64,000 nucleotides of DNA, taken from IMG/VR virus record IMGVR_UViG_3300048573_000442, one strand, 5' to 3'. A program made the translations under genes and the position numbers. The notes beneath the pieces are model-generated. The model was not told the DNA's origin. It made no database searches and was given only the letters and a program-made list of their open reading frames with translations. Source of the DNA: a virus. Shown in pieces: positions 2,724-52,795 of this stretch. Numbering within the stretch: the stretch's first letter is position 1; each line of letters opens with the position of its first letter.

Positions 2724-3368
2724 ATGAAATTAAAACAATTATTTGAATCTACATCTAAACAAGAAGTTGAAACAGTCTTAAACAGGTACGGGATTGAGAA
2801 CTACACCATCAATGATGACTTGTCCGTGGATGTCGATGGAGATGTTGATCTAAGTGAAAATAAGTTGAGTTCGATTCCTGTCAATTTTGGGAAGATCAGT
2901 GGAATTTTTGACTGCTCTAACAACCTGCTAACCTCTTTACAAGGAGCACCAAGAGAAATAGGCGGGTATTTCGGTTGCTCTGGTAACCAATTAGCCTCCT
3001 TACAAGGAGCACCAAGAGAAGTCGGTGGGGGCTTTAAATGCTCTGATAACAAATTAGCTTCTTTGCAGGGTGCGCCAAAAGAAGTAGGCGGGCATTTTTG
3101 GTGCTATCATAACCAATTAACCTCTTTGCAAGGCGGGCCAAGAGAAGTTAATGAGGGTTTTGATTGCTGTTATAACAAACTGACATCTTTACTGGGCGCG
3201 CCTAGGGTAGTAGGCTGGCATTTCAATTGCTTTAAAAACCGATTAACCTCTTTGCAAGGTGCACCTAGAGAAGTAGGCGGGGAGTTTAATTGCCGTTTTA
3301 ATCCAAAATTGACCTCACTTGACGGAATTGGCAATGTTGCCGGACAAATTAAAAGCGACCTATCATGA
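2724..3368 (+). CDS. LRR-like 21-aa repeat protein 1 (7 repeats)
   Basis: MKLKQLFES leader, NYTINDDLSVDVDGDVDL N-cap, xFxCxxN repeats, LDGIGNVAG C-cap. Confidence 0.9.
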   Translation: MKLKQLFESTSKQEVETVLNRYGIENYTINDDLSVDVDGDVDLSENKLSSIPVNFGKISGIFDCSNNLLTSLQGAPREIGGYFGCSGNQLASLQGAPREVGGGFKCSDNKLASLQGAPKEVGGHFWCYHNQLTSLQGGPREVNEGFDCCYNKLTSLLGAPRVVGWHFNCFKNRLTSLQGAPREVGGEFNCRFNPKLTSLDGIGNVAGQIKSDLS

Positions 3369-4018
3369 AATTAAAACAATTATTCGGATTCTCGTTTTCG
3401 ACCTCAAAAGAAAAAGTTGAAAACGTTCTTAAGAAATACAAAATCACAAACTATACAATCAATGACGATCTGTCTGTTGATGTGGATGAGGATATAGATT
3501 TTCGTGGTTCAAATTTAAAAAGATTTCCAATCAAATTTGGCAAAATAAAGGGAAATTTTAATTGTTCTAACACCCAGTTGGAAACGCTTAAAGATGGCCC
3601 GAATGAAGTCAGCGAAAACTTTTACTGTCACAATAACCAATTAGTATCTTTGGAAGGTGCGCCAAAAGAAGTGGGCGGGAGTTTTTGGTGCATGAAGAAC
3701 GAATTGATTTCTTTGAACGGTTCACCAAGGGAAGTAGGCGGGGATTTCAACTGCGACTTAAACCGACTAGCATCCTTACGGGGGGCCGCGCGTGAAGTGG
3801 GTGGCGCATTTGGCTGCGAGAGTAATGAACTGCAGACTTTGGAAGGATGCCCTCGCATTGTAGGCGGGGATTTTTATTGCTCTAAAAACAAATTAACATC
3901 TTTGCACGGCGCACCTAGAGAAATTGGCGGGGATTTTAATTGCCGTTTTAATCCAAATTTGACCTCACTTGACGGGATCGGCAATGTTGCCGGAGAAATT
4001 GAAAGCGATCTATCATGA
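3365..4018 (+). CDS. LRR-like repeat protein 2 (7 repeats, most divergent)
   Basis: Same caps and repeat; MKLKQLFG leader. Confidence 0.9.
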   Translation: MKLKQLFGFSFSTSKEKVENVLKKYKITNYTINDDLSVDVDEDIDFRGSNLKRFPIKFGKIKGNFNCSNTQLETLKDGPNEVSENFYCHNNQLVSLEGAPKEVGGSFWCMKNELISLNGSPREVGGDFNCDLNRLASLRGAAREVGGAFGCESNELQTLEGCPRIVGGDFYCSKNKLTSLHGAPREIGGDFNCRFNPNLTSLDGIGNVAGEIESDLS

Positions 4019-4788
4019 AATTAAAACAGCTGTTTGAATCAGTGTCTAAACAAGATGTGGAATCCATCTTAAAGAAATACGGGATTAAGAACTATACCAT
4101 CAATGATGACATGTCAGTCGATGTTGATGGGGACGTGAAGCTAAATAATAATCACTTAAGTTCGATTCCTGTTAATTTTGGGAAAGTAAGTGGGCATTTT
4201 TGGTGTCATAAAAACCAATTAACTTCTTTACAAGGTACACCTAAAGAAGTCGGTAAGGATTTTGATTGTTCTCACAACCAATTAACTTCTTTACAAGGTG
4301 CTCCTGGGGAAGTTGGTGGCGGCTGTTTTAATTGCCACAACAACAAATTGACCTCTTTACAAGGTGCACCTAGAGAAATTGGTGGAAGTTTTTGGTGCGC
4401 TGATAACAAATTAACTTCTTTACAAGGCGGGCCAAGAGAAGTCGATGGGAGTTTTTCGTGCGCTAGTAACCAATTGTCCTCTTTACAAGGCGCTCCAAGA
4501 GAAGTTGGTGGGCATTTTTATTGCTCTAAAAACAAATTGACCTCTTTACAAGGTGCTCCTAGAGAAGTTGATGGGCATTTTTATTGCTCTAACAACCAAT
4601 TAACTTCTTTGCAAGGTGCTTCAAGAGAAGTTGGCGGAGGGTTTTGGTGCCATAATAACCAATTAACTTCTCTACAAGGCGCACCTAAGGAAGTCGGTGG
4701 GGATTTTAATTGCTCTAACAATCCGAATTTGGCATCACTTGACGGAATCGGCAATGTTGCCGGGCACATTTTTAGCAATCTATCATGA
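4015..4788 (+). CDS. LRR-like repeat protein 3 (9 repeats)
   Basis: Same caps and repeat. Confidence 0.9.
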   Translation: MKLKQLFESVSKQDVESILKKYGIKNYTINDDMSVDVDGDVKLNNNHLSSIPVNFGKVSGHFWCHKNQLTSLQGTPKEVGKDFDCSHNQLTSLQGAPGEVGGGCFNCHNNKLTSLQGAPREIGGSFWCADNKLTSLQGGPREVDGSFSCASNQLSSLQGAPREVGGHFYCSKNKLTSLQGAPREVDGHFYCSNNQLTSLQGASREVGGGFWCHNNQLTSLQGAPKEVGGDFNCSNNPNLASLDGIGNVAGHIFSNLS

Positions 4789-5492
4789 AATTAAGGCAAT
4801 TATTCGAATCTACATCTAAGCAAGATGTAGAATCCATCTTAAACAAATATAAAATAGCAAACTACGCTATCAATGATGACTTATCAGTAGATGTCGATGG
4901 AGATGTGGATCTGAGTAATAAGAAGTTAAGTTCGATTCCTGTTAATTTTGGGAAAGTAAGCGGAATTTTTGACTGCTCTAACAACCTGCTAACCTCTTTA
5001 CAAGGCGCACCTAGGGAAGTTGGTGGTGATTTTAATTGCTCTTATAGCCAGTTAACTTCCTTACAGGGTGCTCCTACCATAGCCTATGGTAATTTTATTT
5101 GCTCTGCCAACCAATTAACATCTTTGGAAAGGGCACCTAGGGAAGTAGGTGGGGATTTTATTTGCTCTAATAACCGTTTGATTTCTTTAAAGGGTGCACC
5201 TAGAGAAGTTGGAGGGCATTTCAGTTGCGCGCGTGCCAAACTGACATCTTTAGAAGGTGCACCTAGAAAAGTAGGTGGGAATTTTTGGTGTGTTAGCAAC
5301 CAATTGCCCTCTTTACAAGGCGGGCCTAAAGAAGTTGGTGGGGATTTTAACTGTAATAGTAACAAATTGACCTCTTTACAAGGCGCACCAAGAGAAGTTG
5401 GTGGGAGTTTTTGGTGCCGCAACAATCCGAATTTGACCTCACTTAACGGAATCAGTAATGTTGGCGGAGACGTTTTTAGCGACATAAAATGA
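4785..5492 (+). CDS. LRR-like repeat protein 4 (8 repeats)
   Basis: Same caps and repeat. Confidence 0.9.
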   Translation: MKLRQLFESTSKQDVESILNKYKIANYAINDDLSVDVDGDVDLSNKKLSSIPVNFGKVSGIFDCSNNLLTSLQGAPREVGGDFNCSYSQLTSLQGAPTIAYGNFICSANQLTSLERAPREVGGDFICSNNRLISLKGAPREVGGHFSCARAKLTSLEGAPRKVGGNFWCVSNQLPSLQGGPKEVGGDFNCNSNKLTSLQGAPREVGGSFWCRNNPNLTSLNGISNVGGDVFSDIK

Positions 5493-6265
5493 AATTAAAA
5501 CAATTATTTGAATCAGTTGCAGTCCCTAAACAAAAAGTTGAATCCATCCTTAAAAAATACAGGATCGAGAATTACGCCATTAATGATGACTTGTCAGTAG
5601 ATGTCGATGGAGATGTGGATCTAAGCTACAAGAAGTTAAGTTCGATTCCTGTCAATTTTGGGAAGGTTAGTGGCAGTTTTTATTGCTCTGACAACAAATT
5701 GACTTCTTTAGAAGGTGCACCGAGAGAAGTCAGTGGGGATTTTGATTGCACTCATAACCAATTAACTTCTTTACAAGGTTCACCTAGAGAAGTAGGCGGG
5801 CATTTTTACTGCTATCATAACCAATTAACTTCTTTACAGGGTTCACCTAGGGAAGTCAGCGGACATTTTTGGTGCTATAGCAACCAATTAACCTCTTTGC
5901 AAGAAGGTCCTAGAGAAGTCGGAGGGAATTTTAATTGCTCTGATAACGAATTGGTAACCATGCAAGGTTCACCTAGGGAAGTAGGCGGGCATTTTAACTG
6001 CTCTACCAACAAATTGACTTCTTTACAAGGTGCACCTAAAGAAGTAGGTGGGGATTTTAGGTGCTCTGGCAACCAATTAACATCTTTGGAAAGGGCGCCT
6101 AGAGAAGTTGGTAAGGATTTTATTTGCTCTGATAACAAATTAACTTCTTTACAAGGCGCACCTAGAGAAGTTGGTGGGCATTTTTTTTGCTACAACAACG
6201 TAAATTTAAAATCACTTGACGGAATCGGTAATGTAGCCGGAGAAATTGAAAGCGACCTATCATGA
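5489..6265 (+). CDS. LRR-like repeat protein 5 (9 repeats)
   Basis: Same caps and repeat. Confidence 0.9.
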   Translation: MKLKQLFESVAVPKQKVESILKKYRIENYAINDDLSVDVDGDVDLSYKKLSSIPVNFGKVSGSFYCSDNKLTSLEGAPREVSGDFDCTHNQLTSLQGSPREVGGHFYCYHNQLTSLQGSPREVSGHFWCYSNQLTSLQEGPREVGGNFNCSDNELVTMQGSPREVGGHFNCSTNKLTSLQGAPKEVGGDFRCSGNQLTSLERAPREVGKDFICSDNKLTSLQGAPREVGGHFFCYNNVNLKSLDGIGNVAGEIESDLS

Positions 6266-6969
6266 AATTAAAACAATTATTTGATTCAACTTCTAGACAA
6301 AAAGTTGAATCTATCCTGAAAAAATATAAAATAACGAACTACGTCATTAACGACGACTTGTCTGTAGATGTCGATGGGGATGTGGATTTGGATAGTAAAC
6401 GCCTAAGTTCGATTCCTGTTAATTTCGGAAAAGTTAGTGGGAGTTTTGATTGCTATAAAAACAAATTGACCTCTTTACAAGGTGTTCCGAGAGAAGTCGG
6501 TAAGGGTTTTGATTGTTCTCATAACCAATTAACATCTTTACAAGGTGCGCCTGGGGAAGTTGGTAGGGATTTTAACTGCTCTCATAACCAATTAACTTCT
6601 TTACAAGGTTCACCTAGGGAAGTCAACAGACATTTTTGGTGTTCTCACAACCAATTAACTTCTTTGCAAGGAGCACCTAGAGAAGTAGGTGAGCTTTTTA
6701 CTTGCGCTAATAACCAATTAACATCCTTACAAGGTGCACCTAGAGAAGTCGGTGGAGAGTTTTACTGCTATGGTAACAAATTGACCTCTTTGCAGGGTGC
6801 TCCTAGAGAAGTTGGCGGAGGGTTTTGGTGCAATAATAACGAATTGACCTCTTTGCAGGGTGCTCCTAGAGAAGTTGGTAAGGATTTTTGGTGTGGCAAA
6901 AATCCGAATTTGAAATCCCTTGACGGAATCGGCAATGTTGCCGGAGAAATTAAAAGCGACATAAAATGA
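6262..6969 (+). CDS. LRR-like repeat protein 6 (8 repeats)
   Basis: Same caps and repeat; MKLKQLFD leader. Confidence 0.9.
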   Translation: MKLKQLFDSTSRQKVESILKKYKITNYVINDDLSVDVDGDVDLDSKRLSSIPVNFGKVSGSFDCYKNKLTSLQGVPREVGKGFDCSHNQLTSLQGAPGEVGRDFNCSHNQLTSLQGSPREVNRHFWCSHNQLTSLQGAPREVGELFTCANNQLTSLQGAPREVGGEFYCYGNKLTSLQGAPREVGGGFWCNNNELTSLQGAPREVGKDFWCGKNPNLKSLDGIGNVAGEIKSDIK

Positions 6970-7622
6970 AATTAAAACAACTATTTGAATCAGTTGCAGC
7001 CCCTAAACAAGAAGTTGAATCTATCCTAAAGAAATATGGTATCGAAAACTACACCATAAATGATGACTTGTCAGTAGATGTCGATGGAGATGTGGATCTA
7101 AGTAATAAACACCTAAGTTCATTTCCAGTGAATTTCGGAAAAGTTAGCGGGAGTTTTGATTGCTCTGACAACAAATTGGCAACTTTAGAAGGCGCACCAA
7201 GAGAAGTCGGCGGGGATTTTATCTGCTCTTCCAACAAATTGGCCTCTCTAAAAGGAGCGCCTAGAGAAGTCAGCGAGATTTTTAATTGCTCTTATAACCA
7301 ATTAACTTCTTTGCAAGGAGCGCCTAGAGAAGTGGATATAGATTTCATTTGCTCTTATAACAAATTAGCTTCTCTAAACGGCTCGCCAAGGGAAGTCGGT
7401 GGGAGCTTTTATTGCTTTAAAAACCAATTAACATCGCTAAAAGGAGCTCCTTGGGAAGTCAGCGAGAATTTTGATTGCTCTGACAACAAATTGACGACTT
7501 TAGAAGGCGCACCTAGAGAAATAGGTGGAAATTTTTATTGTTATGATAACCCAGATTTAAAATCCCTTGATGGAATCGGTAACGACAGCGTTGCCGGAGA
7601 AATTGGAAGCGACATAAAATGA
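6966..7622 (+). CDS. LRR-like repeat protein 7 (7 repeats)
   Basis: Same caps and repeat. Confidence 0.9.
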   Translation: MKLKQLFESVAAPKQEVESILKKYGIENYTINDDLSVDVDGDVDLSNKHLSSFPVNFGKVSGSFDCSDNKLATLEGAPREVGGDFICSSNKLASLKGAPREVSEIFNCSYNQLTSLQGAPREVDIDFICSYNKLASLNGSPREVGGSFYCFKNQLTSLKGAPWEVSENFDCSDNKLTTLEGAPREIGGNFYCYDNPDLKSLDGIGNDSVAGEIGSDIK

Positions 7623-8515
7623 AATTAAAACAATTATTTGAATCAACTTCTGGACAAGAAGTTGAATCTATCCTAAAGAAATACGGTATCGAAAACTACA
7701 CCATAAATGATGACTTGTCAGTAGATGTCGATGGAGATGTGGAGTTAAATAATAATAGCTTAAGTTCAATTCCTGTCAATTTTGGGAAAGTTAGCGGCAG
7801 TTTTAATTGCCTTTTTAACAAACTGGCTTCTTTGCAAGGCGCACCAAGAGAAGTCGATGGAGATTTTATTTGCTCTCATAACCAATTAACTTCTTTACAA
7901 GGCGCGCCAAGAGAAGTCGGAGGGAATTTTTATTGCTATCACAACAAATTAACTTCTTTGCAAGGTGCTCCTGGGGAAGTTGGTGGAAATTTTTATTGCT
8001 ATCGCAACAAATTAACCTCTTTGCAAGGTGCATCTAGGGAAGTGGGTGGGAGTTTTGATTGCTCTGAAAACCAATTAACATCCTTACAAGGTGCACCGAG
8101 AGAAGTAGGCGGGGCTTTTAATTGCTCTGGCAACCAATTAACATCCCTACAAGGTGCACCTAGGGAAGTAGGTGGAAGTTTTTATTGTTATCACAACAAA
8201 TTAACTTCTTTACAAGGCGCATCTAGGGAAGTTGGTAGGGTTTTTGATTGCTCTTATAATGAATTAATGTCCTTACAAGGTGCACCTAGAGAAGTGGGTG
8301 GGAATTTTGTTTGCTCTCATAACCAATTAACTTCTTTGCAGGGTGCACCGAGAGAAGTTGGCGGGAGTTTTTATTGCGGTAGCAATCATTTGTCCTCTTT
8401 GCAAGGAGCTCCTAGGGAAGTTGGTGGAAATTTTTATTGCTCCAAAAATTCAAATTTGTCCTCACTTGACGGGATCGGCAATGTAGCCGGAGAAATTGAA
8501 AGCGACATTAAATGA
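7619..8515 (+). CDS. LRR-like repeat protein 8 (11 repeats)
   Basis: Same caps and repeat; 298 aa = 235 + 3x21. Confidence 0.9.
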   Translation: MKLKQLFESTSGQEVESILKKYGIENYTINDDLSVDVDGDVELNNNSLSSIPVNFGKVSGSFNCLFNKLASLQGAPREVDGDFICSHNQLTSLQGAPREVGGNFYCYHNKLTSLQGAPGEVGGNFYCYRNKLTSLQGASREVGGSFDCSENQLTSLQGAPREVGGAFNCSGNQLTSLQGAPREVGGSFYCYHNKLTSLQGASREVGRVFDCSYNELMSLQGAPREVGGNFVCSHNQLTSLQGAPREVGGSFYCGSNHLSSLQGAPREVGGNFYCSKNSNLSSLDGIGNVAGEIESDIK

Positions 8516-8557: not shown

Positions 8558-9406
8558 TTATTTCATGTGTTCCGAAAGGTCTTGCCAACTTTTAATTTCG
8601 GGATTAGTTTCTACCAGCTTACGCATTTTGTCCCACACGTTTTGCGGGATAACAATTGCGCCGCCGTCAAACCATACTTCCTGATGTTTCTCTGAATGTC
8701 TAAGAGTTGCTGGAGTACACGCATGCATTTGCAGTTTAGAAGGTGAGTATGCGTCTAAAATTGTTTCTAAAAAATGTTTACGGAAATCGTCGTTCTGCAA
8801 CAGTTCCGAATAATCACTTTGTTGTATTCGTTCGTATGCTTCGCTATCTACATCGCGTATTTGCACATCGAACTGTTCCAGCGATTCAAATGGGTCAGTT
8901 CCTGTGTCCAGTCCTGTATTCAGACCTGTCTCTACAAAGGCAGCCAAATAATCATTCATTTCATTAATTGGTTCCAAATTTCCAAAAAGATCAATAATCT
9001 TTTCCCAGATGTCAAGATCGCCGACTTCTCCGATTTTTGCGTTTTTAACCGGGAGCACAATGTATCTCTCATCGCCAAAACCCTTAGCGTAGGCTAAATT
9101 TGTAGTGCATATCATTGATTGACTTCGCTTAGGAAAATCTTTCATCTCTGGGTGATTATCGAAAATGGTTGTGTACCAATTGGATGTATTTTGGCTTTTG
9201 CGTTTTGTCTTTGTCAAATCAACATAGGAAAAACCTAAACCAGCTCTCATGCCCCGATAGAATGGCTGCTGTTCTTTGAGCATCCAGAATAAATCTGGGC
9301 AATGTTCGTTCAAGTAAAAGGTGATAGGACGAGTAGTAAGCGGTTCAAACACCTGTTTAAGTGAACCTTCTGCTTTTGCTTCTAAGAATGTTTTAAATGT
9401 TTTCAT
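8558..9406 (-). CDS. putative ADP-ribosyltransferase-like protein (R-S-E type), capsid-targeting-like leader
   Basis: MKTFKTFLEA; FYRGM, SMICTT..YAKGFG, QEVWF motifs. Confidence 0.55.
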   Translation of the reverse strand: MKTFKTFLEAKAEGSLKQVFEPLTTRPITFYLNEHCPDLFWMLKEQQPFYRGMRAGLGFSYVDLTKTKRKSQNTSNWYTTIFDNHPEMKDFPKRSQSMICTTNLAYAKGFGDERYIVLPVKNAKIGEVGDLDIWEKIIDLFGNLEPINEMNDYLAAFVETGLNTGLDTGTDPFESLEQFDVQIRDVDSEAYERIQQSDYSELLQNDDFRKHFLETILDAYSPSKLQMHACTPATLRHSEKHQEVWFDGGAIVIPQNVWDKMRKLVETNPEIKSWQDLSEHMK

Positions 9407-10247
9407 TTTTCATAGCTTCCGATAAATCTTGCCAATTTCTAATTCGTTTTTTGCTTGATCTATACATACTTCTCATTTTGTTCCATTCGTCTAATGGAAT
9501 AATAATGGCACCAGTATCAAACCACACCTCATGCCCTATATAAGTCAGTTCTTCGATTTCGCCAAATGCGGACCCATCAATCCGCAGCACTTTCGGCGAA
9601 TACGCCTTCAAAATTGATTCCAAGAACAAATTTGTAAATTCGGTCTTCTCTAATAGGGACGAATATTTGCTGTTTTTAAGTCTTTGAAAAACTTGGCTAT
9701 TTACATCTTTTATTTGGCGGTCAAATTCCTGCAGAAGCCCAAACGAGCATTTTTCTGTTTTTAGTCCACATTGAATGATTCCGGAAAAGAAATCATTCAT
9801 TGTTTTTATTTCTACTTCATCCCCAAAAATTTTAATCCAAAGGTCCCAAATGTCCGACACGTAAATTTCTGCTACTTTAGCATTTTTAACTGGCAGGATA
9901 GCATATACCTGACTTCCAAATCCATGTGCATAATCGAAATCGGTGGTACAAATCATAGACTCGCTTCTTTTCGGGAGATGACTCATTTCAGGATGATTGT
10001 CAAATATTTCCGTGTACCAATTAGAAGAGTTTTGGCTTTTACGTTTTGTCCCTGTCAAATCAACAAATGAAACACTTAGACCTGATCTCATGCCACGGTA
10101 CAGAACTGCTTTCTCCGTCAGCGCCCAGAACGTATCGGGGCAATACTTATTTAGGTAGTAGGCAGCTGGATGTTCCGTAAGGGGCTGATACACTAGCGAA
10201 GCAGAACCTTCTGCTTTTGCTTCTAGGAATGTTTTAAACGTTTTCAT
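9393..10247 (-). CDS. putative ART-like paralog
   Basis: MKTFKTFLEA; LYRGM, SMICTT..YAHGFG, HEVWF. Confidence 0.55.
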   Translation of the reverse strand: MKTFKTFLEAKAEGSASLVYQPLTEHPAAYYLNKYCPDTFWALTEKAVLYRGMRSGLSVSFVDLTGTKRKSQNSSNWYTEIFDNHPEMSHLPKRSESMICTTDFDYAHGFGSQVYAILPVKNAKVAEIYVSDIWDLWIKIFGDEVEIKTMNDFFSGIIQCGLKTEKCSFGLLQEFDRQIKDVNSQVFQRLKNSKYSSLLEKTEFTNLFLESILKAYSPKVLRIDGSAFGEIEELTYIGHEVWFDTGAIIIPLDEWNKMRSMYRSSKKRIRNWQDLSEAMKNENI

Positions 10248-10825
10248 AGTACGGTTCCTTTAACAATTGAATTAATTGCGTTTATAACAGTTGAATGTTG
10301 AACAACTTCAAAATGGTTTGTCGCTAATAGCAATTCATCCGTTGGCTTTACGCATCTTTGGGATTTTACTGATACAACTCCATCATTAGCATTAGCCATA
10401 AACGGCGATCCTCCGCCAGTAGTTACTACATTTAGCCAACGGCATGGAGGAATTATATTTCTCGAGTATGCAACTGAATTGCTATAAGGTGCTAAATCTT
10501 TCATGACTAGCAATTTTGGAAATGCATAACGTAAAAAGGCAGCAGCGTTATGCCCGCCGAACGGTGTTGATATCGTAATAATTCCGACAACATTTGGGTC
10601 TTCGCAGGCGATACGATGTGCCAAAATTCCACCCAAACTATGTGCAACAATAAAGTATTTTTGGGAAAGTTCTTCATGCTTAATAGCGTTATGCACGCTG
10701 TCGATTGATTGCGTGCTGTCGTATTCAGCAACAATTGGAATATGATCTTGTATCTGGGAAATAATGTGATTAAACACAATTCCAGAGCTATTAAATCCGT
10801 GAATGTAAAGAATTGTGGGTTTCAT
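10244..10825 (-). CDS. alpha/beta hydrolase (lipase/esterase-like)
   Basis: YIHGF oxyanion loop, AHSLGG nucleophile elbow, ISTPFGG, NDGVV, NHF. Confidence 0.85.
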   Translation of the reverse strand: MKPTILYIHGFNSSGIVFNHIISQIQDHIPIVAEYDSTQSIDSVHNAIKHEELSQKYFIVAHSLGGILAHRIACEDPNVVGIITISTPFGGHNAAAFLRYAFPKLLVMKDLAPYSNSVAYSRNIIPPCRWLNVVTTGGGSPFMANANDGVVSVKSQRCVKPTDELLLATNHFEVVQHSTVINAINSIVKGTVL

Positions 10826-11072
10826 TTAGGATGTTATGTTCGGGTATTGTTAATTTGCCAGCAGAGATTAGATCTCTTCTAATGACTATTAGTCTAGTCA
10901 ATTCTTTAGACAAATGGGATATTTGATCTGAAGTTGATTGGCGATTATATTTTTGAACGTATTTGTTAATCGCATCTTGAGTCATATAGTTAATGACATC
11001 GGAGTAATGATTTATCCGTTCGCTATCAACCACAAAAGCGGTTTTAACTTTTTCAGTAATAATCTTTGACAT
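10791..11072 (-). CDS. hypothetical protein
   Basis: 93-aa ORF overlapping both neighbours in a dense operon. Confidence 0.55.
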   Translation of the reverse strand: MSKIITEKVKTAFVVDSERINHYSDVINYMTQDAINKYVQKYNRQSTSDQISHLSKELTRLIVIRRDLISAGKLTIPEHNILNETHNSLHSRI

Positions 11073-11835
11073 GTTTCTGTAAATCTTGCCAATCGTCTAT
11101 ATTGATAATGACTGCGCCTTTATCAAACCAAACTTCCCCCTGAATTATTTTCGAGGATTCAAGTGTTGCGGTAGTTTTTGCCAGTAGGCCAGTTTTTCTA
11201 GGAGAATATGCATCAAATAATTCTTTAAGAAAATCGCTTGAAATGACACGTTTATATTTTTCGGCAAAACGCAATCTTTCAATAATTTCACCGTTTTTAT
11301 TTTTTAGGGCTTCATCGAATTTTACCAATGCATTAAAACAGGATTCATCTTCTTCATCATAATCAAGCAGGTTTTTTAAAAAATAATTTGCGTCGATCAG
11401 TGAAAGCGATTTCCCGAATAGGGTTGTCCTAAGATCCCACATGTCCTGTTCGCCAACTAAACCTATTTTTGAACCGTTTACAGGAATCACTGCAAATACT
11501 GATCCAAACGCACTTGCATAACCTTTAGATGTGGAGCAAATTATAGATTTGCTACGTTTGGGAAAGTCCTGCATTTCGGGGTGATTATCAAAAATTTCAG
11601 TATAAAAATTATTGGTGTTTTGGCTTTTCCTGGCCGTCCTTGCCAAATTGACAAAAGCAGGAGGATGATCCCATTGTAGCTTCCCGAATCCCCGATAAAA
11701 TGGTTTATCTTGCTCGATCATCCATAAAGAATCAGAACAATGCCTTTTTAGAAATTCGTGTATGTGATCAATTGGTTCAAATACCTGTTTAGGCGAATCT
11801 TCCGCTTTTGCTTCTAAGAAAGTTTTAAATTTCAT
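11053..11835 (-). CDS. putative ART-like paralog
   Basis: MKFKTFLEA; FYRGF, IICSTS..YASAFG, QGEVWF. Confidence 0.55.
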   Translation of the reverse strand: MKFKTFLEAKAEDSPKQVFEPIDHIHEFLKRHCSDSLWMIEQDKPFYRGFGKLQWDHPPAFVNLARTARKSQNTNNFYTEIFDNHPEMQDFPKRSKSIICSTSKGYASAFGSVFAVIPVNGSKIGLVGEQDMWDLRTTLFGKSLSLIDANYFLKNLLDYDEEDESCFNALVKFDEALKNKNGEIIERLRFAEKYKRVISSDFLKELFDAYSPRKTGLLAKTTATLESSKIIQGEVWFDKGAVIINIDDWQDLQKHVKDYY

Positions 11836-12808: not shown

Positions 12809-12809
12809 T

Positions 12810-13466: not shown

Positions 13467-13473
13467 AATTAGT

Positions 13474-13956
13474 TTATTCTTTATTAAAGTCGTCCCAAAT
13501 TTCTTTATCTGCTTTTCTAGCAGGCCCGCCAACAATAAACGAATTCACTCGAGCCATCGCCCATTGTGCTTGGGCAACACCCGGTCTATGCCCAGTTCTC
13601 CAAGCTGCAGAACCCTTATTGAACACTCGCCGTAAAATAGATACGGGAATTCCTGTTTTTTCAGACTTATTCTTGAGCGCAACGTCAATATTTGAAGACT
13701 CGCCAAACAGCTCTTCATACTTTTCAGTATGTTCGCTTTTTGGTATAGATTTTCCTGCCGACTTCAACTGTTTCTTATATTTCCTATCAGCGGTCCAGTT
13801 GTCAGGATAAGCTTTTGGATCTTTATGGTCAAGACGTTTAAACTTATCAATTTCTTTTGACATCTCTTTTTTCAGGGGAGGTTTGTTTTTTGCCCCCTTA
13901 AAATCCAAATACTTTGGATTTGTCTCAGAAATGAACTGTTTAAACGTTATCGTCAT
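13474..13956 (-). CDS. conserved phage protein (DUF5824-like), capsid-targeting-like leader
   Basis: MTITFKQFISE; ALKNKSEKTGIP..L..VFNKG.AAWRTGHRPG...QWA.ARVNSF motif recalled from T4-like phages and giant viruses. Confidence 0.6.
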   Translation of the reverse strand: MTITFKQFISETNPKYLDFKGAKNKPPLKKEMSKEIDKFKRLDHKDPKAYPDNWTADRKYKKQLKSAGKSIPKSEHTEKYEELFGESSNIDVALKNKSEKTGIPVSILRRVFNKGSAAWRTGHRPGVAQAQWAMARVNSFIVGGPARKADKEIWDDFNKE

Positions 13957-13958
13957 GA

Positions 13959-16605: not shown

Positions 16606-16609
16606 AATT

Positions 16610-44343: not shown

Positions 44344-47268
44344 TTAAAAAGCGTCTACTGCTTGTGGGGTGTTTCTACGCCCGAACATTGGCTCGGAAAT
44401 TTTAAACGTTGGCGTATTTTGGGGGGCGATAATAGCCAATAATCTAACAGCTTCATTTAGAACCTGTGTTATTTGGACTAATTGGTTTTGAGCGGCAACA
44501 TCAGAAACTTGAATGATTCCTGATGCTGATCGTGAACTATTTATCAGTTCTGACGAAGCTGCTTCCCGTTCTGGCGGGGAAATAGAAGATTTTGACGTTG
44601 ATGAAGGGCTCGCGTTATAAACATCGTAAACGCCTGTTGCGAGCCCGCTTGCTGCTTTTGTCGTCTTGGTGCCAAAGTCCGCGGCTTCGTCGCCGCCATT
44701 GAACAGATCGTAAATCCAGCCACCCAGGGTGGTCTGACTGCCCGTCAGTGTACTGGTCAGCTTGTTGATGGGCTCGACCAGCAGCGTGCCGACTCCGTAC
44801 ATAGCAACGCCAACGCCTGCGACAAGGCCAGCAGAACCAAGCGCTGCACCGCCTCTTAGCATTGTTGCGCCCAATGGCAATAATGCTTTGCCCAACCCGG
44901 ATACCAACGATCCTGCGCCAGCGCCTCCAAGCGCAAGTAATGATTTTGCAGCTAGCCCACTTGAAAATGCGAGGCCAGTGATTGCGGCTGCTCCAGCTAA
45001 AGCAGCAACTGTTAGGGAATTAGTTGCAATAGAAACTGCAGTTTCCCTAATTTCAGTAAGGTGCATAATCGTATTATCAGGTTTGGCAGCCTCTTGTGAC
45101 CTAGCTCGCGCTTCTTCACTGGTCCCGATTTTTGCCCGCTCCTTAATTGCCATTTGCGAGTACATATCTAGCTGATTCTCAATGTCTGCTCCAGGAGAAG
45201 TAGCTTCAAGCATAAAATCGCGAATCGTCCCCTGTTGGAGGCCTACGGCCTCTGTTTCATATGTTCCCCTTCTTGCAGCAACGCGTTCTAAAAGTTTCTG
45301 ATATTCTTCAGTTTCGCTACCTTTACCGGTAGTCTTCCTCATACCTTTTACAGATAAATGATATGCGCGCATTTGTTCCTCTGCGCTGAAACCAAGTGCT
45401 CCCATTTGAACCATTAGTTTCGCACCACCTTCAAATCGTTCACGGACCTTTGCGCGTTTTGCAGCTTCTTGTATCTTTATTGCGTCCTGCGCCTGCTGAA
45501 TGCTTAAGCCCCGAACATGTAGTTCGTTTCGCTGGGATTCCAAATTATCGCTGTATGCTTGAGACTGTGCAGCAGTCATGCCAAGCATGGTCTTCATGAC
45601 ATCTTCGCCGCCAAATAATTCGCTATTCAGGCTAGCATATTCAGCAGCGTTTATGTTTATAGTTCCCGATAGCTTATTAAAGGACTCCATCGTCTTTCGC
45701 ATATACCCGTTTAATGCATTTTCGTTAGACGTATCAACTCCGCTTGAGATTGCCGCTTCAGTTGCGGGAGCTATTATTGCAGCCGCCTGTTTAAATGAGT
45801 ATCCGAACTCGTTAAAAGTGTTTTCAAAACCACTGCGAAGCGAGCCAAATGCGCTTGCACCATAATTTGCCATTACCCTTTTGTTATCCAGCATGAACTT
45901 TGTAGTTTCATCAAAGCTCATTCCCATTGCAATCGACTTTTGCTGAACATCAAGATACGATGTTGCTATGCTAGCTACGTTGAAGTCTGAAGTCTCAGAC
46001 ATAATGGTCAGTAAGGCAGTTGCGGTTTTACTAAGTGCTGCTACTGTTCCGGCGTAGGTAGAAAGTTCGCCGATCTTATTGGTTCCTGCCTCAGCTAGCC
46101 CATCAAGAGAAAACTTACGTTTGATGGCGCCTAATGCAGTGTTCGCATTGACGCCAATCTTATCTAGGCGCTGGGTAGTTTCGGCTGTGGTTTTATAAAA
46201 GGTTTCTAAAACTTCTGCGAGACGACTAAGTTCTTTATTAACTGTTATTTTCGCTTCTTCATCTTTGGGATCGACATTGCCGAAATCCCCGCTTTGCATG
46301 CGTGAAAGAATCTCTGTAACATCTGAAGGAAGTTTGACCTTTAGGGATTTTAGTTGTTCGAATGCAGCCGCCATAGATGCTTGCATTTCTTCGCCTTGTC
46401 CAGGAACGGCGTTGCTTGCGTTGGCATCGTTATACGTTTTTAGAATACCTTCAGACAGCATCTCCTCGACAGACTTTCCACTCATACTCGAGAAATCTTT
46501 AAATGCTTCTCCGAGTGCAACGTTTGCCTCGCCCATCCTTATTCGGAGTTGGGAAAAGTCATCCGGCATCAAGTTGTTATTAAACTCGTTTGCCGCTTCA
46601 TCGATCAAGTTCATTGCGACCAACATGCTTCTTGACATGTCGTTGGCCTTCAAAATCTTTGTCGCATCAGTCAACTGCGAGACATATTTTGCATGATCTG
46701 CAGATGTAGCATCCGAATTAATTTCTGCTGCTCTACTAATAAGAGCTGCATTCATAAGGCTCGAGTTTCTTTGAACTACGCTGAAATTGTTTGATAACCC
46801 GGTTGTTCCCTTAACAAGGTTTTTAAACGCCGCAACCTGTTGCGGAAGCGATAACCTAATGAGTTTTGTATACTCAATCGTGAGTTTGTCTTGGGTTTGC
46901 TTTACCCCCTCGGTAGATTGGGCAAGTTGTTCTTGAGCTTTTTTAACCCGTTCGGCTTTACTTCCGCTAGACGTGCCCCGTGGATCACTTGCTGCAGCAC
47001 CGATTAAATTTCTGAATGCAGCAGTAGACTCCTTTAAAAGGCGGTTTTGCGCAGTCAGGTTTTTTGAATTCAGACGAAGCTGACGTTCATAATCGTCCAT
47101 CGCAGCTTCACCGAAAGCACTCATGTTTGAAGAGCGCGTGGAACGTGAAGAACTTGCTGCTCCGCCACCACTATGAGATGCGCCTGTTACTCGAGCAAGT
47201 GTGTTTACGCTTGAAGTAAGAGCTGTTATAAGCGCGTTTAATTGTGCATCAGAGTATTGTGTTGACAT
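44344..47268 (-). CDS. tape-measure-like protein
   Basis: 974 aa, Ala/Ser-rich and helical, with Gly/Ala-rich hydrophobic segments; divergent from gp26/gp51. Confidence 0.55.
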   Translation of the reverse strand: MSTQYSDAQLNALITALTSSVNTLARVTGASHSGGGAASSSRSTRSSNMSAFGEAAMDDYERQLRLNSKNLTAQNRLLKESTAAFRNLIGAAASDPRGTSSGSKAERVKKAQEQLAQSTEGVKQTQDKLTIEYTKLIRLSLPQQVAAFKNLVKGTTGLSNNFSVVQRNSSLMNAALISRAAEINSDATSADHAKYVSQLTDATKILKANDMSRSMLVAMNLIDEAANEFNNNLMPDDFSQLRIRMGEANVALGEAFKDFSSMSGKSVEEMLSEGILKTYNDANASNAVPGQGEEMQASMAAAFEQLKSLKVKLPSDVTEILSRMQSGDFGNVDPKDEEAKITVNKELSRLAEVLETFYKTTAETTQRLDKIGVNANTALGAIKRKFSLDGLAEAGTNKIGELSTYAGTVAALSKTATALLTIMSETSDFNVASIATSYLDVQQKSIAMGMSFDETTKFMLDNKRVMANYGASAFGSLRSGFENTFNEFGYSFKQAAAIIAPATEAAISSGVDTSNENALNGYMRKTMESFNKLSGTININAAEYASLNSELFGGEDVMKTMLGMTAAQSQAYSDNLESQRNELHVRGLSIQQAQDAIKIQEAAKRAKVRERFEGGAKLMVQMGALGFSAEEQMRAYHLSVKGMRKTTGKGSETEEYQKLLERVAARRGTYETEAVGLQQGTIRDFMLEATSPGADIENQLDMYSQMAIKERAKIGTSEEARARSQEAAKPDNTIMHLTEIRETAVSIATNSLTVAALAGAAAITGLAFSSGLAAKSLLALGGAGAGSLVSGLGKALLPLGATMLRGGAALGSAGLVAGVGVAMYGVGTLLVEPINKLTSTLTGSQTTLGGWIYDLFNGGDEAADFGTKTTKAASGLATGVYDVYNASPSSTSKSSISPPEREAASSELINSSRSASGIIQVSDVAAQNQLVQITQVLNEAVRLLAIIAPQNTPTFKISEPMFGRRNTPQAVDAF

Positions 47269-47291
47269 GGGCTTTTACGCTCTCAGGACTG

Positions 47292-47322
47292 TATAAATAG
47301 AATAGGGCTTAGTCTATTTATT
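47292..47322. promoter_or_regulatory. pair of oppositely oriented late promoters
   Basis: TATAAATA (+) 47292-47299 toward gp26; AATAAATA (-) 47315-47322 toward the tape measure gene. Confidence 0.6.
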
Positions 47323-47373
47323 GCTCAATGTAAAACCCTGAACTAGACCATAATTTATAATATCGGAGAAACA

Positions 47374-48159
47374 ATGTCAGATACAAACCCCCTTTTAAGT
47401 TCACTAAAATTGCCAGGGCGCATTTTCCAAATCCCTTCGCGCGGGGTGTTTTATACAAATGGTGAACTATCGCCAAATGTAAAAAATGGCGAACTTCATG
47501 TTCGCGCGATGTCAGCGCTTGATGAAATCAACTTAAAAAATCCTGATCAATTGTTTTCCGGTGACGCTTTGAATGCAGTGTTTAAAACGTGTATTGATGG
47601 AGTTGAAAAGCCGACAGAGCTTTTAGCTAAGGACGTTGATGCTATTATGATGTTTTTACGAACTGTTACATATGGCCCAAATTACGAGTTCATCGCAAAA
47701 CATACTTGCGAAAATGCTAAAGAGCATACTTACGTTGGCAACGTTGACGAAATGATTAATCGAAGCGTCATGATTGACCCGACACAGGCGGAGAAACAGT
47801 ACACTGTCACGCTTTCAAATGGGCAGACGGTCTACATTAATCCGAACCGCTACCAGCAGATCCTGGATGTCATCAAATTCAATCAGGGCAAAACTGAAAT
47901 CACTGTTAAGGACCAACAAGACAACTTGATCATGATGCTCCTGGCAGTCGTCAGCCGCATTGATGCTGTTACAGATAGAAAGCATATTGAAGAGTGGTTG
48001 CGTTCGGCTCCTGTTACATATATTAACAAGATTGCATTTCAATCTGAAGCTGTTAATAGCTGGGGCCCCAATCTCAAATATACATGTAAGTGTAAAGATT
48101 GTGGTGAAGAATTTGAAGTTGATATCCCTATCAACCCAGTAACTTTTTTCACAGAATGA
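47374..48159 (+). CDS. gp26: baseplate hub assembly protein
   Basis: LKLP...IPSRG, R.M...DE..L, D...L....R..TYG, H.C, C.C..CG.E..I..NPVTFF. Confidence 0.8.
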   Translation: MSDTNPLLSSLKLPGRIFQIPSRGVFYTNGELSPNVKNGELHVRAMSALDEINLKNPDQLFSGDALNAVFKTCIDGVEKPTELLAKDVDAIMMFLRTVTYGPNYEFIAKHTCENAKEHTYVGNVDEMINRSVMIDPTQAEKQYTVTLSNGQTVYINPNRYQQILDVIKFNQGKTEITVKDQQDNLIMMLLAVVSRIDAVTDRKHIEEWLRSAPVTYINKIAFQSEAVNSWGPNLKYTCKCKDCGEEFEVDIPINPVTFFTE

Positions 48160-48467: not shown

Positions 48468-49736
48468 TTATTCGCAATATGATTCGACTTTAATTCGAAG
48501 TCCATGTTTTTCAAACACATCATTCGCAAACGTGTTCTCATCACTAATAATAACTCCGTCGAGCCCATCATGAGCATTGACTCCACTGAAGTTAGTCATT
48601 TCCCAAATGTTGTATCTCTGTTCCCGTTCCCATGAGAAATACATTTGAAACACCTTTTTAAGGTTTTCAGAAGTCGGCTTTATCTTTAAGACGTTAAGAC
48701 AAATATCCTTCTTAGCAGCCCTAAATTGCCTAGTTATAGTTTGCAATCTGTTACCAGCGCTAATGAGTTGCTCAGCAGTCAGTGTTGGGTTAGCCTGCAT
48801 AACAACCCGAACTGCTTCTGAACGTGAAGAACCATCTAGCATAAGGCCGGGACTGGCCCTAGATCCATTTGACAGGGCCATAATTAAGGTTTTTACATGT
48901 TTTAAATTCTCACTGCTAATAGGTAGATGCAGAACATTCTTACATATGTCCTCTCTAAACTCTTTTTTCTGCCTGTCCGCCTTTAACAGTTCGGGATATT
49001 TTAGCTCGAGCAACTTCATATTTCCCATGTATTTTCGATATAAATGACTTACGAGAAACTGGCAATATGAATTCTCAATGTCGACTACCGTCCCGAATAA
49101 TTCCTTTCGAAGCCAACCCGGCCACATTTCAAGGCTCCTAATTGGCCAAACAGAAACATCGCGGGCTTGTAGTTTCCCAGCGGCTTTGTAATAAAACGTG
49201 ACACGCTCTGCTTCATAAAGCCAATTCACTGCACTAATAAGTTCTTCTTTGCCTTCTGAATGTAATCGCTCTTTGACATATAGCCAACGATCTTTTCTAA
49301 CAACGACTTCTGAAGTTACATAATCTTTTTCGTCTGGTTCAGGCCCAGGACAAAACTTTGATGTGTTCAGAAGCTGTTCAATTGCTGAGATTAACTCGTC
49401 AGAAATCTTTTTAGGGCTTACTAATGTTGCGCTCTTGGTGCCATTGTTGAAATTGAACCCAGTTCTTTTAATTGTGAAAAAATGCGTAAGAATCTTTTTT
49501 GCATCGCCAACTTGAGAAGTCAGGGCAGTCAGCAACATTTCTTCTTCTAATAACCCTGGAGCCTTTCGAAGTTTTGAAGTTGCATGATACCAAGCGACAG
49601 CAATGGACAAAACCATTGCCTGTCGCCGTTTTCTTTTACTCCACCACATGCCCTCAAGATTATAAAAATTGCTGACATGTAACGGGTTAGTGCGTTCAAT
49701 TTCTAATGAGGTCCTTATGGGGTGAAAAAATATCAT
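48468..49736 (-). CDS. hypothetical protein with family-A polymerase-like palm motifs
   Basis: AGKL..SLEMWP.WLR..LF, DIENSYCQFL (motif A-like), VKTLIMALSNG (B-like), NAHDGL (C-like). Confidence 0.4.
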   Translation of the reverse strand: MIFFHPIRTSLEIERTNPLHVSNFYNLEGMWWSKRKRRQAMVLSIAVAWYHATSKLRKAPGLLEEEMLLTALTSQVGDAKKILTHFFTIKRTGFNFNNGTKSATLVSPKKISDELISAIEQLLNTSKFCPGPEPDEKDYVTSEVVVRKDRWLYVKERLHSEGKEELISAVNWLYEAERVTFYYKAAGKLQARDVSVWPIRSLEMWPGWLRKELFGTVVDIENSYCQFLVSHLYRKYMGNMKLLELKYPELLKADRQKKEFREDICKNVLHLPISSENLKHVKTLIMALSNGSRASPGLMLDGSSRSEAVRVVMQANPTLTAEQLISAGNRLQTITRQFRAAKKDICLNVLKIKPTSENLKKVFQMYFSWEREQRYNIWEMTNFSGVNAHDGLDGVIISDENTFANDVFEKHGLRIKVESYCE

Positions 49737-50206
49737 CGACGACGAATTACTGAACGAAGTTTAATACGGGAAATAAGTTCTTCAAGAGTTGAGAAAAGCG
49801 GGATTTCGAACCGATCACATACCATTTCCACATTGCCCTTTCGCCAATAGCCCTCTGGGCAGCAAACAAAGACTTTATTGGACTTTGCATAAAGCCCTAG
49901 TTCCATCAGAGTAATTGGCGCTTTGGTTTTTGGGTCAAAATAGTAAACGATTAGATCTGCAGAATCTTGATTATCTAACTCCCAAGTAACTTGCTCATTA
50001 AACTGCGGGTCCTTTATGCTTTGAACCCAGGAGGAATCCCAATCATCCCGCCGAGGATTTAGCAGGATTACATTAAACTTTTCTAAGTTACGGGCGACAG
50101 TTTCTTGCCAATTTTCGGCTTCTCCCATCTCAATGGAGCCACCGAGAAATACTGACAATGCACCAGTATTATTTTCCCACTGATTTGGAGACTTAATTTC
50201 TGTCAT
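49733..50206 (-). CDS. nucleoside 2-deoxyribosyltransferase-like protein
   Basis: VFLGGSI, NWQ, LNPRRDDWD, QV.WEL, APITLMELG. Confidence 0.85.
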   Translation of the reverse strand: MTEIKSPNQWENNTGALSVFLGGSIEMGEAENWQETVARNLEKFNVILLNPRRDDWDSSWVQSIKDPQFNEQVTWELDNQDSADLIVYYFDPKTKAPITLMELGLYAKSNKVFVCCPEGYWRKGNVEMVCDRFEIPLFSTLEELISRIKLRSVIRRR

Positions 50207-51575: not shown

Positions 51576-51650
51576 AGACCTCCCATATAGTTTTGTTTAT
51601 GTGTATCGTGTTCTTGGCACGGTGGTATTTATCACATGAACAAAACTAAA

Positions 51651-52220
51651 TTAGGGGCAATCTGTCCCGAGAAAAATTGAAGTTTCCCTTAATAAGCCAT
51701 ACCCGCATTCTGTGACGGGTTTACCGAATAAGCGATATTGTTCCAGCATTAAGCGTTCATTGCTGGAGTTTGCAAGTTCGAAGTCTGCCAACTTTGAATC
51801 TCGCTTAATTTCACCGGTTAGGGCGTCAATGACTTTAACAGAATAATACTGAGATAGCTTTTTCCAAATTGAGATAGATTCTGGGCTCAACTCTACATCA
51901 GAAATAATGCTGTTGCCGTTACCCCGCAAAGTCCGATGAAGAGAAGTAATGAAACCCCGGTTTCTCCATTTAGGGACAACAAAAGTCCTATTGATTACAA
52001 GTGCTTTTGGTTGCAAAATTTGCACTGCTTTAGCAAATGCGACCATTTCATTATCAACGACAATAACAAAGAAAAAATCATTTGCAAATTGCTGATAGAG
52101 CAATTTATGACCTTCGACGTTCGCCGTTTTATAAGGTTGCAGATCTGTTAAAATTGACAGTTCAAACGGGTTAGCGTTTGGTTGCTGCGGAATTCGCGTA
52201 ATTTCGCTAAGTTTTACCAT
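51651..52220 (-). CDS. GNAT-like acetyltransferase 2
   Basis: FVVPKWRNRGF motif A; SD..LSPESI.IWK.L. Confidence 0.6.
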   Translation of the reverse strand: MVKLSEITRIPQQPNANPFELSILTDLQPYKTANVEGHKLLYQQFANDFFFVIVVDNEMVAFAKAVQILQPKALVINRTFVVPKWRNRGFITSLHRTLRGNGNSIISDVELSPESISIWKKLSQYYSVKVIDALTGEIKRDSKLADFELANSSNERLMLEQYRLFGKPVTECGYGLLRETSIFLGTDCP

Positions 52221-52795
52221 TATGGTAACGATTCGCCTATAAAAATTTGGTGCTCAAGTGTTTGGAAATTGTTTGGGGAATAAAGCCATTTGTGAATTCG
52301 TTCTAAAAGAAAATGATCAGCGTTTACATACGCGGGGTTGTCAAAATCACAATCAACCGCGTTACGCCTTCCCCCGGAATCCCTATCTACTACTTTCATT
52401 CCGTTAGTATGTTTCCTCAAATTCTTCCAAATTGAAATTGATTCCGGTGAAAGTTGCGAATCTGAAACCAGCACAAACCCCTGGTTATGAAGCGTCAAAT
52501 AAAGTGCGGTCATTAATCCTCGGTTCCTGAATTTCAGCGGAGCCCAAGTTTGCTTTATGATTATGCCGCCTTCAATATCATCTAGCTTGACAGCCTTCAT
52601 ATACGCAGCATTTTCCCCATTTACTTGAACTACGAAAAAATAACTGTCGCCCACTTCATTACATAGTAACGGATACTGTTCGACTTTGGCCTTCCTAAAC
52701 TGTGTCGCGCAATCAAACACCCCATGTTCAAATTGGAAAATGTTTGACTGCTTCGGAATTTTTGAAACTTCAGCTAATTTCATCAATTTCGCCAT
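52220..52795 (-). CDS. GNAT-like acetyltransferase 1
   Basis: WAPLKFRNRGL motif A; SD..LSPESI.IWK.L; paralog of neighbour. Confidence 0.6.
   Translation of the reverse strand: MAKLMKLAEVSKIPKQSNIFQFEHGVFDCATQFRKAKVEQYPLLCNEVGDSYFFVVQVNGENAAYMKAVKLDDIEGGIIIKQTWAPLKFRNRGLMTALYLTLHNQGFVLVSDSQLSPESISIWKNLRKHTNGMKVVDRDSGGRRNAVDCDFDNPAYVNADHFLLERIHKWLYSPNNFQTLEHQIFIGESLP

Follow-up and report, generated by a model that had tools for sequence, protein, structure and literature searches.

A recurrent N-terminal leader on accessory genes of an uncultured jumbo phage, probably a capsid targeting sequence of the T4 kind

The DNA analysed here is a stretch of 64 kb (64,000 nucleotides) from the IMG/VR virus record IMGVR_UViG_3300048573_000442, the whole of which we call the window. 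It comprises the late structural genes of a jumbo myovirus that has a T4-type core and is uncultured. The major capsid protein shares 62% identity with its counterpart in Ralstonia phage RsoM2USA, 54% with the one in Xanthomonas phage XacN1 and 27% with T4 gp23. Gene identities in the window were taken from PHROG and Pfam scans. Our subject is a short N-terminal peptide, in most cases closed by a glutamate, with which proteins of otherwise unrelated families begin. This leader is probably a capsid targeting sequence (CTS) of the kind known from phage T4, marking cargo that is packaged into the head.

The leader and the genes that carry it

Eight genes encoding leucine-rich repeat (LRR) proteins lie in tandem at 2724-8515 (+) (starts at 2724, 3365, 4015, 4785, 5489, 6262, 6966 and 7619), neighbours overlapping by ATGA. 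Two paralogues beginning MKLKQLFE are found at 27089-27550 (-), between tail and neck genes, and at 29419-29946 (-), both assigned by BLAST family. The eight tandem genes open with MKL[KR]QLF followed by E, which is replaced by G in unit 2 and by D in unit 6, two exceptions that the original prediction had noted. The gene at 7619-8515 matches Pfam LRR_4 with 31.3 bits (cut-off 27). An LRR protein modelled with AlphaFold2 (AF2) has a predicted local distance difference test score (pLDDT) of 95, with strands about every 21 residues in a solenoid of LxxLxLxxN-type repeats, and Foldseek matches it to the LRR domains of IpaH3, IpaH7.8 and SspH1 (probability 1.0, TM 0.62). The N-cap helix starts with the first ten residues of the model, for which the mean pLDDT is 64. 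Relatives of these LRR proteins have leaders of a different wording, i.e. MQSFKSFLNE, MRFKQFLTE and MKTFKRFLTE in the IMG/VR loci L044 and L045, and MNFKEFLNE and MKTFKQFLSE in RsoM2USA.

A second group of leader genes is carried on the opposite strand between 8558 and 18928, and includes five members of what we call family B. The genes at 8558-9406 (-) (weight matrix described below, metagenomic homologues, AF2 model) and 9393-10247 (-) begin MKTFKTFLE and that at 11053-11835 (-) begins MKFKTFLE, in each case followed by A; the last two are assigned by BLAST family and weight matrix. The paralogue at 11825-12808 (-) has an additional N-terminal domain of about 58 residues ending L-K-E, followed by an internal LRFSEFLKE and then S. 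The fifth member, at 18029-18928 (-), was placed by BLAST family and begins MKLAEILALNE then A. Two remote relatives are joined to family B by the profile phrog_11975, one at 14536-15186 (-), with MKTFKTFLNE then Q (PHROG, weight matrix), and one at 22404-23216 (-), with MTQFRQFLTE then Q. The latter is the second gene of an operon with an ATAAATA box, headed by a DUF5856 gene (23213-23566 (-)) that PHROGs describes as a starvation-inducible regulator.

The original prediction took these proteins to be ADP-ribosyltransferases (ARTs). Conserved features of family B include an invariant R51 in a YRG motif, an RSxSxICS[TS] block and E243. Searches with family B gave no sequence match in the PDB and no Foldseek match, while a fold search with VIA-align returned Arr at Z 6.2 followed by many ART-fold chains at Z 3-4. 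What stands of the assignment is thus a weak fold match and the conserved R/S/E pattern; a sequence match to a solved ART was not found. We refer to family B as ART-like, an assignment that is unproven and comes from fold comparison.

Kinase-like proteins make up a further family, K, with three members. The gene at 16610-17287 (-) begins MARNFKKYLVE then S (T7 gp0.7-like protein kinase PHROG, weight matrix), its paralogue at 17290-17985 (-) begins MNFKHFLAE then S (BLAST family, weight matrix), and the third, at 15173-15880 (-), has the degenerate leader MKHRLFE then S (BLAST family). The family matches the T7 gp0.7-like kinase profile phrog_15752 (E 1.6e-9) and has DLH[SP]GNFM near the C-terminus, to be compared with the D-L-H-x-G-N of the catalytic loop in phage Ser/Thr kinases. 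No Pfam match was found in the scan and tblastn against a phage collection found nothing; the metagenomic homologues number only 2. Between these genes lies one for a P-loop kinase (Zeta_toxin/AAA_33; 15877-16605 (-)), in which the Walker A motif directly follows the leader, MTTNFKTYITE then G. Its RsoM2USA orthologue is 41% identical and starts MTTFKEYLLE, again followed by G. The profile phrog_12810 spans both this P-loop kinase and family B, in agreement with the fused 778-residue gp53 of Agrobacterium phage Atu_ph07.

The same block contains a DUF5824 protein at 13474-13956 (-), beginning MTITFKQFISE then T (Pfam, weight matrix), an 84-residue protein at 13959-14213 (-) with a weak possible leader MQLLKQLVNLKE then A (p=0.18 by the weight matrix), and a 98-residue protein at 14243-14539 (-) starting MKTFKEFLKREE. 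Outside it are a 206-residue helical protein at 25669-26289 (+), behind its own ATAAATA box, with MTLLASFITE then AR, and a 161-residue protein at 33403-33888 (-) with an Alt-type leader of moderate support, MLLKELIFTE then A. Orthologues of the 25669 protein start MKVAELFE, MLVQELFE and MLILDLFE, each then followed by AR. Finally, two GNAT-like paralogues at 51651-52220 (-) and 52220-52783 (-) begin MVKLSE and MKLAE. For one of them Pfam Acetyltransf_1 scores 23 bits (cut-off 20.7) and for the other there is no match. The earlier inclusion of GNATs in the set is thus backed by a marginal domain match, but with a leader that is not above chance their membership is doubtful.

Two genes inside the leader-gene block are without the leader. 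These encode an alpha/beta-hydrolase-like protein (10244-10825 (-)) and a Laminin_G_3 (concanavalin-like) protein (12810-13466 (-)). A lipase (ORF279) is reported among the virion proteins of XacN1 in the paper describing that phage.

Every leader quoted in the original prediction was found at the gene start given for it, including MKTFKTFLE on the minus-strand genes beginning at 9406 and 10247 and MKFKTFLE on that beginning at 11835. In six cases (15186, 15880, 17287, 17985, 25669 and 52783) the leader Met is internal to the longest open reading frame (ORF). A strict core of the leader, F-[KR]-x-[FY]-[LI]-x-E, was searched in the six-frame translation of the window (about 128,000 codons). There are seven matches, and all but one of these follow the start Met of a real ORF at a distance of 0-3 residues, covering at least five unrelated families. 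A weight matrix for the leader was built leaving out one family at a time, with 17,733 internal windows as the background. Nine genes in six families have an empirical p<6e-5 (three of family B, two of family K, 13474, 14536, 15877 and 22404), and the score is reached by none of the 17,733 internal windows. The value is p=0.004 for 14243-14539 and p=0.01 for 25669-26289. By the same matrix the tail and baseplate genes of the window have no strong motif, as predicted, and neither have the replication genes.

Judged by their sequences the leaders appear to be of two flavours, an IP-type, M-(K/T)-x-F-K-x-F-L-x-E, named for the T4 internal proteins (IPs), and an Alt/gp24-type, M-K-L-x-x-L-F-E. By the IP-type matrix alone MKLKQLFE, MKLAEILALNE, MKHRLFE and MLLKELIFTE are inseparable from chance; they are rescued by orthologues or paralogues with canonical leaders. 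The subtypes interchange among orthologues and paralogues, and because relatives of the genes with Alt/gp24-type variants carry canonical leaders these variants are tied to the same tag. Most leaders are closed by a hydrophobic-x-Glu protease motif, I/L-x-E, or F-L-E in family B, with a small or polar residue next. The motif is ambiguous in 14243-14539 (..FLKREE).

On removal of the 15 N-terminal residues the leader proteins fall into about 12 BLAST families, three of which (family B, 14536 and 22404, sharing phrog_11975) are merged by PHROG profiles into a single ART-like superfamily. This leaves about 10 families, namely LRR (10 genes), ART-like (7), kinase-like (3), P-loop kinase, DUF5824, GNAT-like (2) and four singletons. 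The estimate of about 28 unrelated accessory genes needs correction on this point. The shared leaders are real, but they mark some 22-26 genes in about 10 families and not 28 unrelated ones; about 22 leaders are credible, while those of the GNAT pair and of one or two further genes are weak.

Head genes, late-promoter motifs and conservation of the leader

A gp21-type prohead protease is encoded at 41445-42059 (-) (phrog_207, E 1.6e-55). It is 34% identical to T4 gp21, the GELNHP and GVSSRG blocks containing the conserved His and Ser are aligned, and both proteins begin ..QLLIE. This is presumed to be the enzyme that removes the leader. An acidic protein at 39322-40224 (-), with 22 hydrophobic-x-E sites, is a putative scaffold by its gp22 position, and is homologous to the gp22-position gene that adjoins the capsid gene of RsoM2USA. 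Two small proteins in the gp67/68 position (40354-41432 (-)), encoded between protease and scaffold, have an early I-K-E and I-M-E. The major capsid protein (38059-39303 (-)) has L-R-E then T-A at residues 37-41. This had been proposed as the propeptide cleavage site, and in the BLAST alignment it lies within 2 residues of that of T4 gp23.

The N-terminus of the scaffold protein, MDEILQKLLSSELLSE, is nearly invariant in about 65 relatives (loci L005-L074) that are otherwise 40-70% identical, and the scaffold N-termini of XacN1 and RsoM2USA are similar to it. This segment might be processed itself, or serve in an interaction. Prediction of a complex between the scaffold and residues 1-48 of family B gave no answer (score 0.00), and this is neither for nor against binding.

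The T4-type late-promoter motif TATAAATA occurs five times in the window, in all cases 38-87 nt upstream of a gene start. One of these boxes (2674-2681 (+)) is 43 nt upstream of the LRR array, i.e. before the first LRR gene, another is 38 nt upstream of the gp21 gene, and the remaining ones precede gp22 and the genes at 36923 and 47374. A shorter ATAAATA box is found before nearly every late operon, including those of 25669 and of the 23213-22404 pair, and (T)ATAAATA also precedes the tube, sheath and large terminase genes. The 8558-18928 block reads as one late operon, because its genes are overlap-packed behind tube, neck and small-terminase genes. From these promoter sequences and the gene arrangement we infer that the leader genes would be expressed late, alongside the head genes. 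We note that the divergent intergenic regions 2580-2724 and 47268-47374 have back-to-back late-promoter boxes, one for each strand.

Conservation of the leader was analysed in family B, for which there are 43 metagenomic homologues, down to 25% identity, that mostly retain it. Leader positions F4, K5, F7, L8 and E9 are 74-89% conserved, above the average of the protein body. In the AF2 model of family B (pLDDT 90.4) residues 1-8 and 10-15 are below 50, with a short helix at 4-10 and then a confident fold, and in this model the leader is predicted to be a flexible tag ahead of the folded domain. In the N-extended subfamily, which includes 11825-12808, the 58-residue N-terminal domain closes with G-[IL]-S-E, or with L-K-E in the gene of the window. 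After it comes a canonical leader in an internal position, worded MITFKQYLSE, ISFKEFIGE or LRFSEFLKE. The N-terminal domain of 11825-12808 is homologous to RsoM2USA ORF381, a 75-residue head-module gene located between protease and scaffold. The internal leader thus lies between two hydrophobic-x-E motifs, so the tag does not need the start codon next to it to be conserved, and may also function at such a position. Several metagenomic proteins of about 320 residues are built in the same way.

A likeness of this sort could in principle arise at the level of the nucleic acid, either as an A/T-rich start that favours translation or as conserved DNA for recombination of cassettes. The leader codons AAA, ACA and TTT would suit an initiation region, and Repoila et al. 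in 1994 reportedly proposed cassette exchange at shared leaders for the ip loci of T-even phages. Yet the same leader residues are written in different synonymous codons between families and the upstream DNA is unrelated, which argues against both a recombination cassette and a purely mRNA-level effect. Moreover it is the amino acids that are conserved at the terminal Glu and the aromatic positions, one subfamily keeps its leader about 60 residues from the start, and the most highly expressed genes (capsid, sheath and tube) do without it. We consider an origin at the nucleic acid level very unlikely.

The distribution of the leader in relatives was analysed using 70 IMG/VR loci collected around related capsid genes (948 kb). 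These contain 33 strict-core matches after a start Met and 16 elsewhere in long ORFs. The matches fall on 18 BLAST clusters of cargo, and the tagged genes are within 10 kb of the capsid gene, as far as can be seen in loci that were collected around that gene. In RsoM2USA, family-B paralogues lying side by side begin MTFKAFLQE, MTTFKEYLTE and MKLEDLFE. The tags of this phage are found on ORF385 and ORF403-405 and on genes near 47, 57, 66 and 165 kb. Genome-wide counts were made with the back-translated strict core, and control counts are given in brackets. There are 10 (4) in RsoM2USA, 20 (2), 7 (0), 3 (2), 12 (1) and 13 (4) in the relatives G002 to G006 respectively, and 1 (1) in XacN1 and 1 (0) in PA5oct. 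No recurrent leader family was found in PA5oct, for which the record flags the proteins detected by mass spectrometry. Because the counts vary in this way, the arsenal is a variable trait of this lineage and not one of all jumbo phages with a T4 core. In G002, an IMG/VR relative of 343 kb, 15 matches lie on one strand within about 20 kb (G002:C1:162958-182583), often at intervals of 0.7-0.9 kb. Tagged paralogues may thus form a long tandem array there that exceeds any in the window.

These counts also bear on another account of the leader, in which a few families were duplicated along with their N-termini and all other leaders are chance Lys-rich starts. It is true that three expanded families account for 20 of the 28 genes and that several of the short leaders are at chance level. 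Nevertheless, at least six families unrelated by BLAST reach p<6e-5 when their own family is left out of the matrix, and the same tag is found on 18 cargo clusters in relatives. Paralogy with chance is largely refuted by the N-terminal position of the strict core, the weight matrix, the counts in the 70 loci and the range of cargo clusters, and we regard it as extremely improbable.

Virion association of homologues and the proposed role of the leader

Proteomic data for a more distant phage provide a proxy for the fate of the leader proteins. The family B homologues of Atu_ph07 are gp53-gp63 (E 3e-11), which are encoded in tandem; all of them begin with M[RK]W[EHQD]QL[TN]E or with something close to it, for instance MRLFQLLE. 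In purified Atu_ph07 virions gp53-gp65 were all detected by electrospray ionization tandem mass spectrometry, with 3-31 unique peptides each (Table S5, PMC6102473). Genes were paired with the entries of that table according to their order and molecular weight. Within gp19-77 all 13 proteins with the specific leader were detected, compared with 19 of 46 others (Fisher p=9e-5). In this phage, detection in the virion follows the specific leader only and not a loose rule of hydrophobic-x-E within the first 13 residues.

The leader might direct proteins to the virion, or to processing by a gp21-type protease, without placing them in the head interior; the proteins would then be components of the tail, baseplate or virion surface, or assembly factors that are cut and discarded. 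The Atu_ph07 mass spectrometry, which shows association with the virion only, would fit this, as would the two LRR genes between tail and neck genes, and LRR and lectin-like domains are also typical of adhesins. However, the tag matches those of T4 internal proteins and not that of any tail protein, the tail and baseplate genes of the window do not carry it, and kinases, ART-like enzymes and P-loop kinases need cytoplasmic substrates. We think a location other than the head interior unlikely.

Still less probable, in our view, is that what the proteins share at the N-terminus is recognised by a different partner, for example a modifying enzyme, a chaperone or an export system. A radical-SAM-type CxxxCxxC protein is not encoded in the 64-kb window, the tag ends at a protease motif and resembles the experimentally proven T4 tag, and in the related loci (with the sampling noted above) tagged genes keep within 10 kb of the capsid gene.

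The reading we favour is that the N-terminal peptide is a CTS of the T4 kind that marks head-packaged cargo, and we consider this probable. It was the central proposal of the original prediction, and it is consistent with the likeness to T4, the protease, the late promoters, the selection at the level of the peptide and the Atu_ph07 virions. The tagged proteins would be synthesised late, together with the head proteins, and the tag would draw them into the scaffolding core of the prohead. The gp21-type protease would then cut after the terminal Glu at the hydrophobic-x-Glu site, and the mature proteins would remain in the head beside the DNA and enter the host at infection. There the LRR binders, ART-like enzymes, kinases and small proteins would act before any phage gene is expressed. 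We infer the binding to the core, the cleavage, the residence in the head, the injection and the action of the cargo. Taken together, our analysis suggests that the phage probably injects a large set of host-manipulating proteins, predictable from sequence, along with its DNA.

Several observations weigh against CTS function, for the set as a whole or for some of its members. The leaders MQLLKQLVNLKE, MVKLSE and MKLAE are at chance level by the weight matrix, and two LRR units are without the terminal Glu. In the LRR model the leader is continuous with the N-cap helix (helix 2-21), so that cleavage is less certain there. The GNAT-like pair follows homologues of gp55, gp47 and gp46 without a late box, in an operon that does not look late. 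The enrichment in Atu_ph07 becomes non-significant (p=0.08) when the 13 proteins are counted as 3 independent families; these data concern virion association and not head location or cleavage, and the leader is a different variant. The loose rule is not predictive, since 10 undetected Atu_ph07 proteins fit it. Lastly, the virion studies of RsoM2USA and XacN1 analysed few gel bands and are silent on the tagged proteins.

For the ten LRR genes we put forward a more tentative suggestion. They could be diversifying, head-packaged and injected binders, the variable IpaH-like face of each copy neutralising a different host defence or takeover target as the DNA enters. As part of the same speculative reading, the LRR repertoire might be an LRR-based counterpart of the T4 anti-restriction proteins Ip1-3. 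If this were true, the LRR proteins with the ART-like enzymes and kinases would make the whole "injectome" of the clade readable via the tag.

If the tag works as in T4, the proteins delivered with the DNA of a widespread soil and freshwater jumbo clade can be listed from sequence. The strict-core counts of 3-20 per genome in complete relatives point to a fast-evolving arsenal for host takeover or anti-defence. It would also follow that the T4 CTS has been kept almost letter for letter across phages with capsid proteins of 27% identity, and that the classes of cargo widen from small inhibitors to LRR arrays, ART-like enzymes and T7 gp0.7-like kinases. A direct test is possible in RsoM2USA, a relative that is in culture and carries the same tags.

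Elsewhere in the window, the large terminase (589-2580 (-)), tail tube genes (20290 and 21720), sheath (23648-25486) and portal (42124-44331 (-)) were assigned by PHROG/Pfam, as were neck, tail-completion and baseplate genes and homologues of gp46, gp47 and gp55. The terminase and the portal each seem to have an intein-like insertion. In both cases an insert of about 120-320 residues interrupts the PHROG and Pfam matches to the host protein, the scores against Pfam Intein_splicing (27 and 32.7 bits) are below the cut-off of 35.8, and the two inserts are 27% identical over 111 residues. Directly downstream of the major capsid gene are an HNH/homing-endonuclease-like gene (35340-36845 (-); phrog_3339, E 5e-78) and an endonuclease VII-like gene (37302-37937 (-)); in PA5oct this place is taken by a Hef-like homing endonuclease. 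A gene for an NAD-dependent epimerase/dehydratase (31860-32732 (-)) lies amid tail and neck genes, and one for a nucleoside 2-deoxyribosyltransferase-like protein (49733-50206 (-)) near recombination genes.

Comparison with known systems

The closest parallel is with the internal proteins of T4. In the T4 genome (NC_000866) IPI starts MKTFKEFTSTTTPVSTITE then A, and IPII and IPIII start MKTYQEFIAE then A, the sequence originally cited for T4. The start of 14243-14539, MKTFKEFL, is identical to IPI at 7/7 residues (MKTFKEF). Like those of the window, the tags of IPI, IPII and IPIII have 8-12 residues in nearly the same wording with a hydrophobic-x-Glu end, are placed on otherwise unrelated non-essential proteins, and occur with a gp21 protease, a scaffold and T4-type late promoters, the last two being putative in the window. 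The T4 tag is the sole feature common to diverse T-even internal proteins and is sufficient to load foreign proteins into heads, and Ip1-3 are injected inhibitors of GmrSD-type restriction enzymes (PMC3012670, PMC7697877, PMC12373910). T4 has three IPs plus Alt that are tagged, whereas the phage of the window has about 22 or more tagged genes, in keeping with the much larger repertoire that had been claimed. The T4 IPs are small basic proteins, while the cargo here comprises enzymes and LRR arrays of 150-330 residues; homologues of IPI-III are absent.

T4 Alt (MELITELFDE), a head-packaged ADP-ribosyltransferase, parallels the ART-like proteins of the window in having an ..ELF(D)E-type leader and a gene placed amid morphogenesis genes. 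Leaders of this type are MKLKQLFE and MKLAEILALNE in the window and MKLEDLFE in RsoM2USA; T4 gp24 starts MAKINELLRE. ARTs that go with the head are widespread among myoviruses (Iyer et al. 2022, PMC9503650). Unlike Alt, to which it has no sequence match, family B has a weakly supported ART fold, and is present in 7 copies here and at least 11 in Atu_ph07. The homologous tandem array gp53-gp63 of Atu_ph07 likewise has an 8-residue leader ending L-x-E, but it belongs to another jumbo lineage, the leader is M[RK]WxQL[TN]E, and the proteins were not read as CTS cargo in PMC6102473.

In the phiKZ-like giants (SPN3US, phiKZ and 201phi2-1) many inner-head proteins are cut after Glu by a gp21-related protease, and their propeptides are thought to target the proteins to the prohead (PMC5694885). 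Those propeptides are mostly of 80-130 residues with the motif (S/A/G)-x-E (PMC5694885), in contrast to the short T4-type tags of the window. The LRR proteins resemble the type III effectors IpaH, SspH and YopM in having repeats of about 21 residues, which in the effectors form a target-binding module on a delivered protein. They differ in lacking an E3 ligase domain and in a delivery that would be via the phage head and not a secretion system; the likeness is at the level of the fold.

In the open-access literature we found no description of CTS-tagged cargo in the RsoM2USA/XacN1 jumbo clade to which the phage of the window belongs. The T4 tag is experimentally proven, whereas the system in this clade is known here from sequence. 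The mechanism is one that is already known, and the novelty lies in the lineage, the scale and the cargo.

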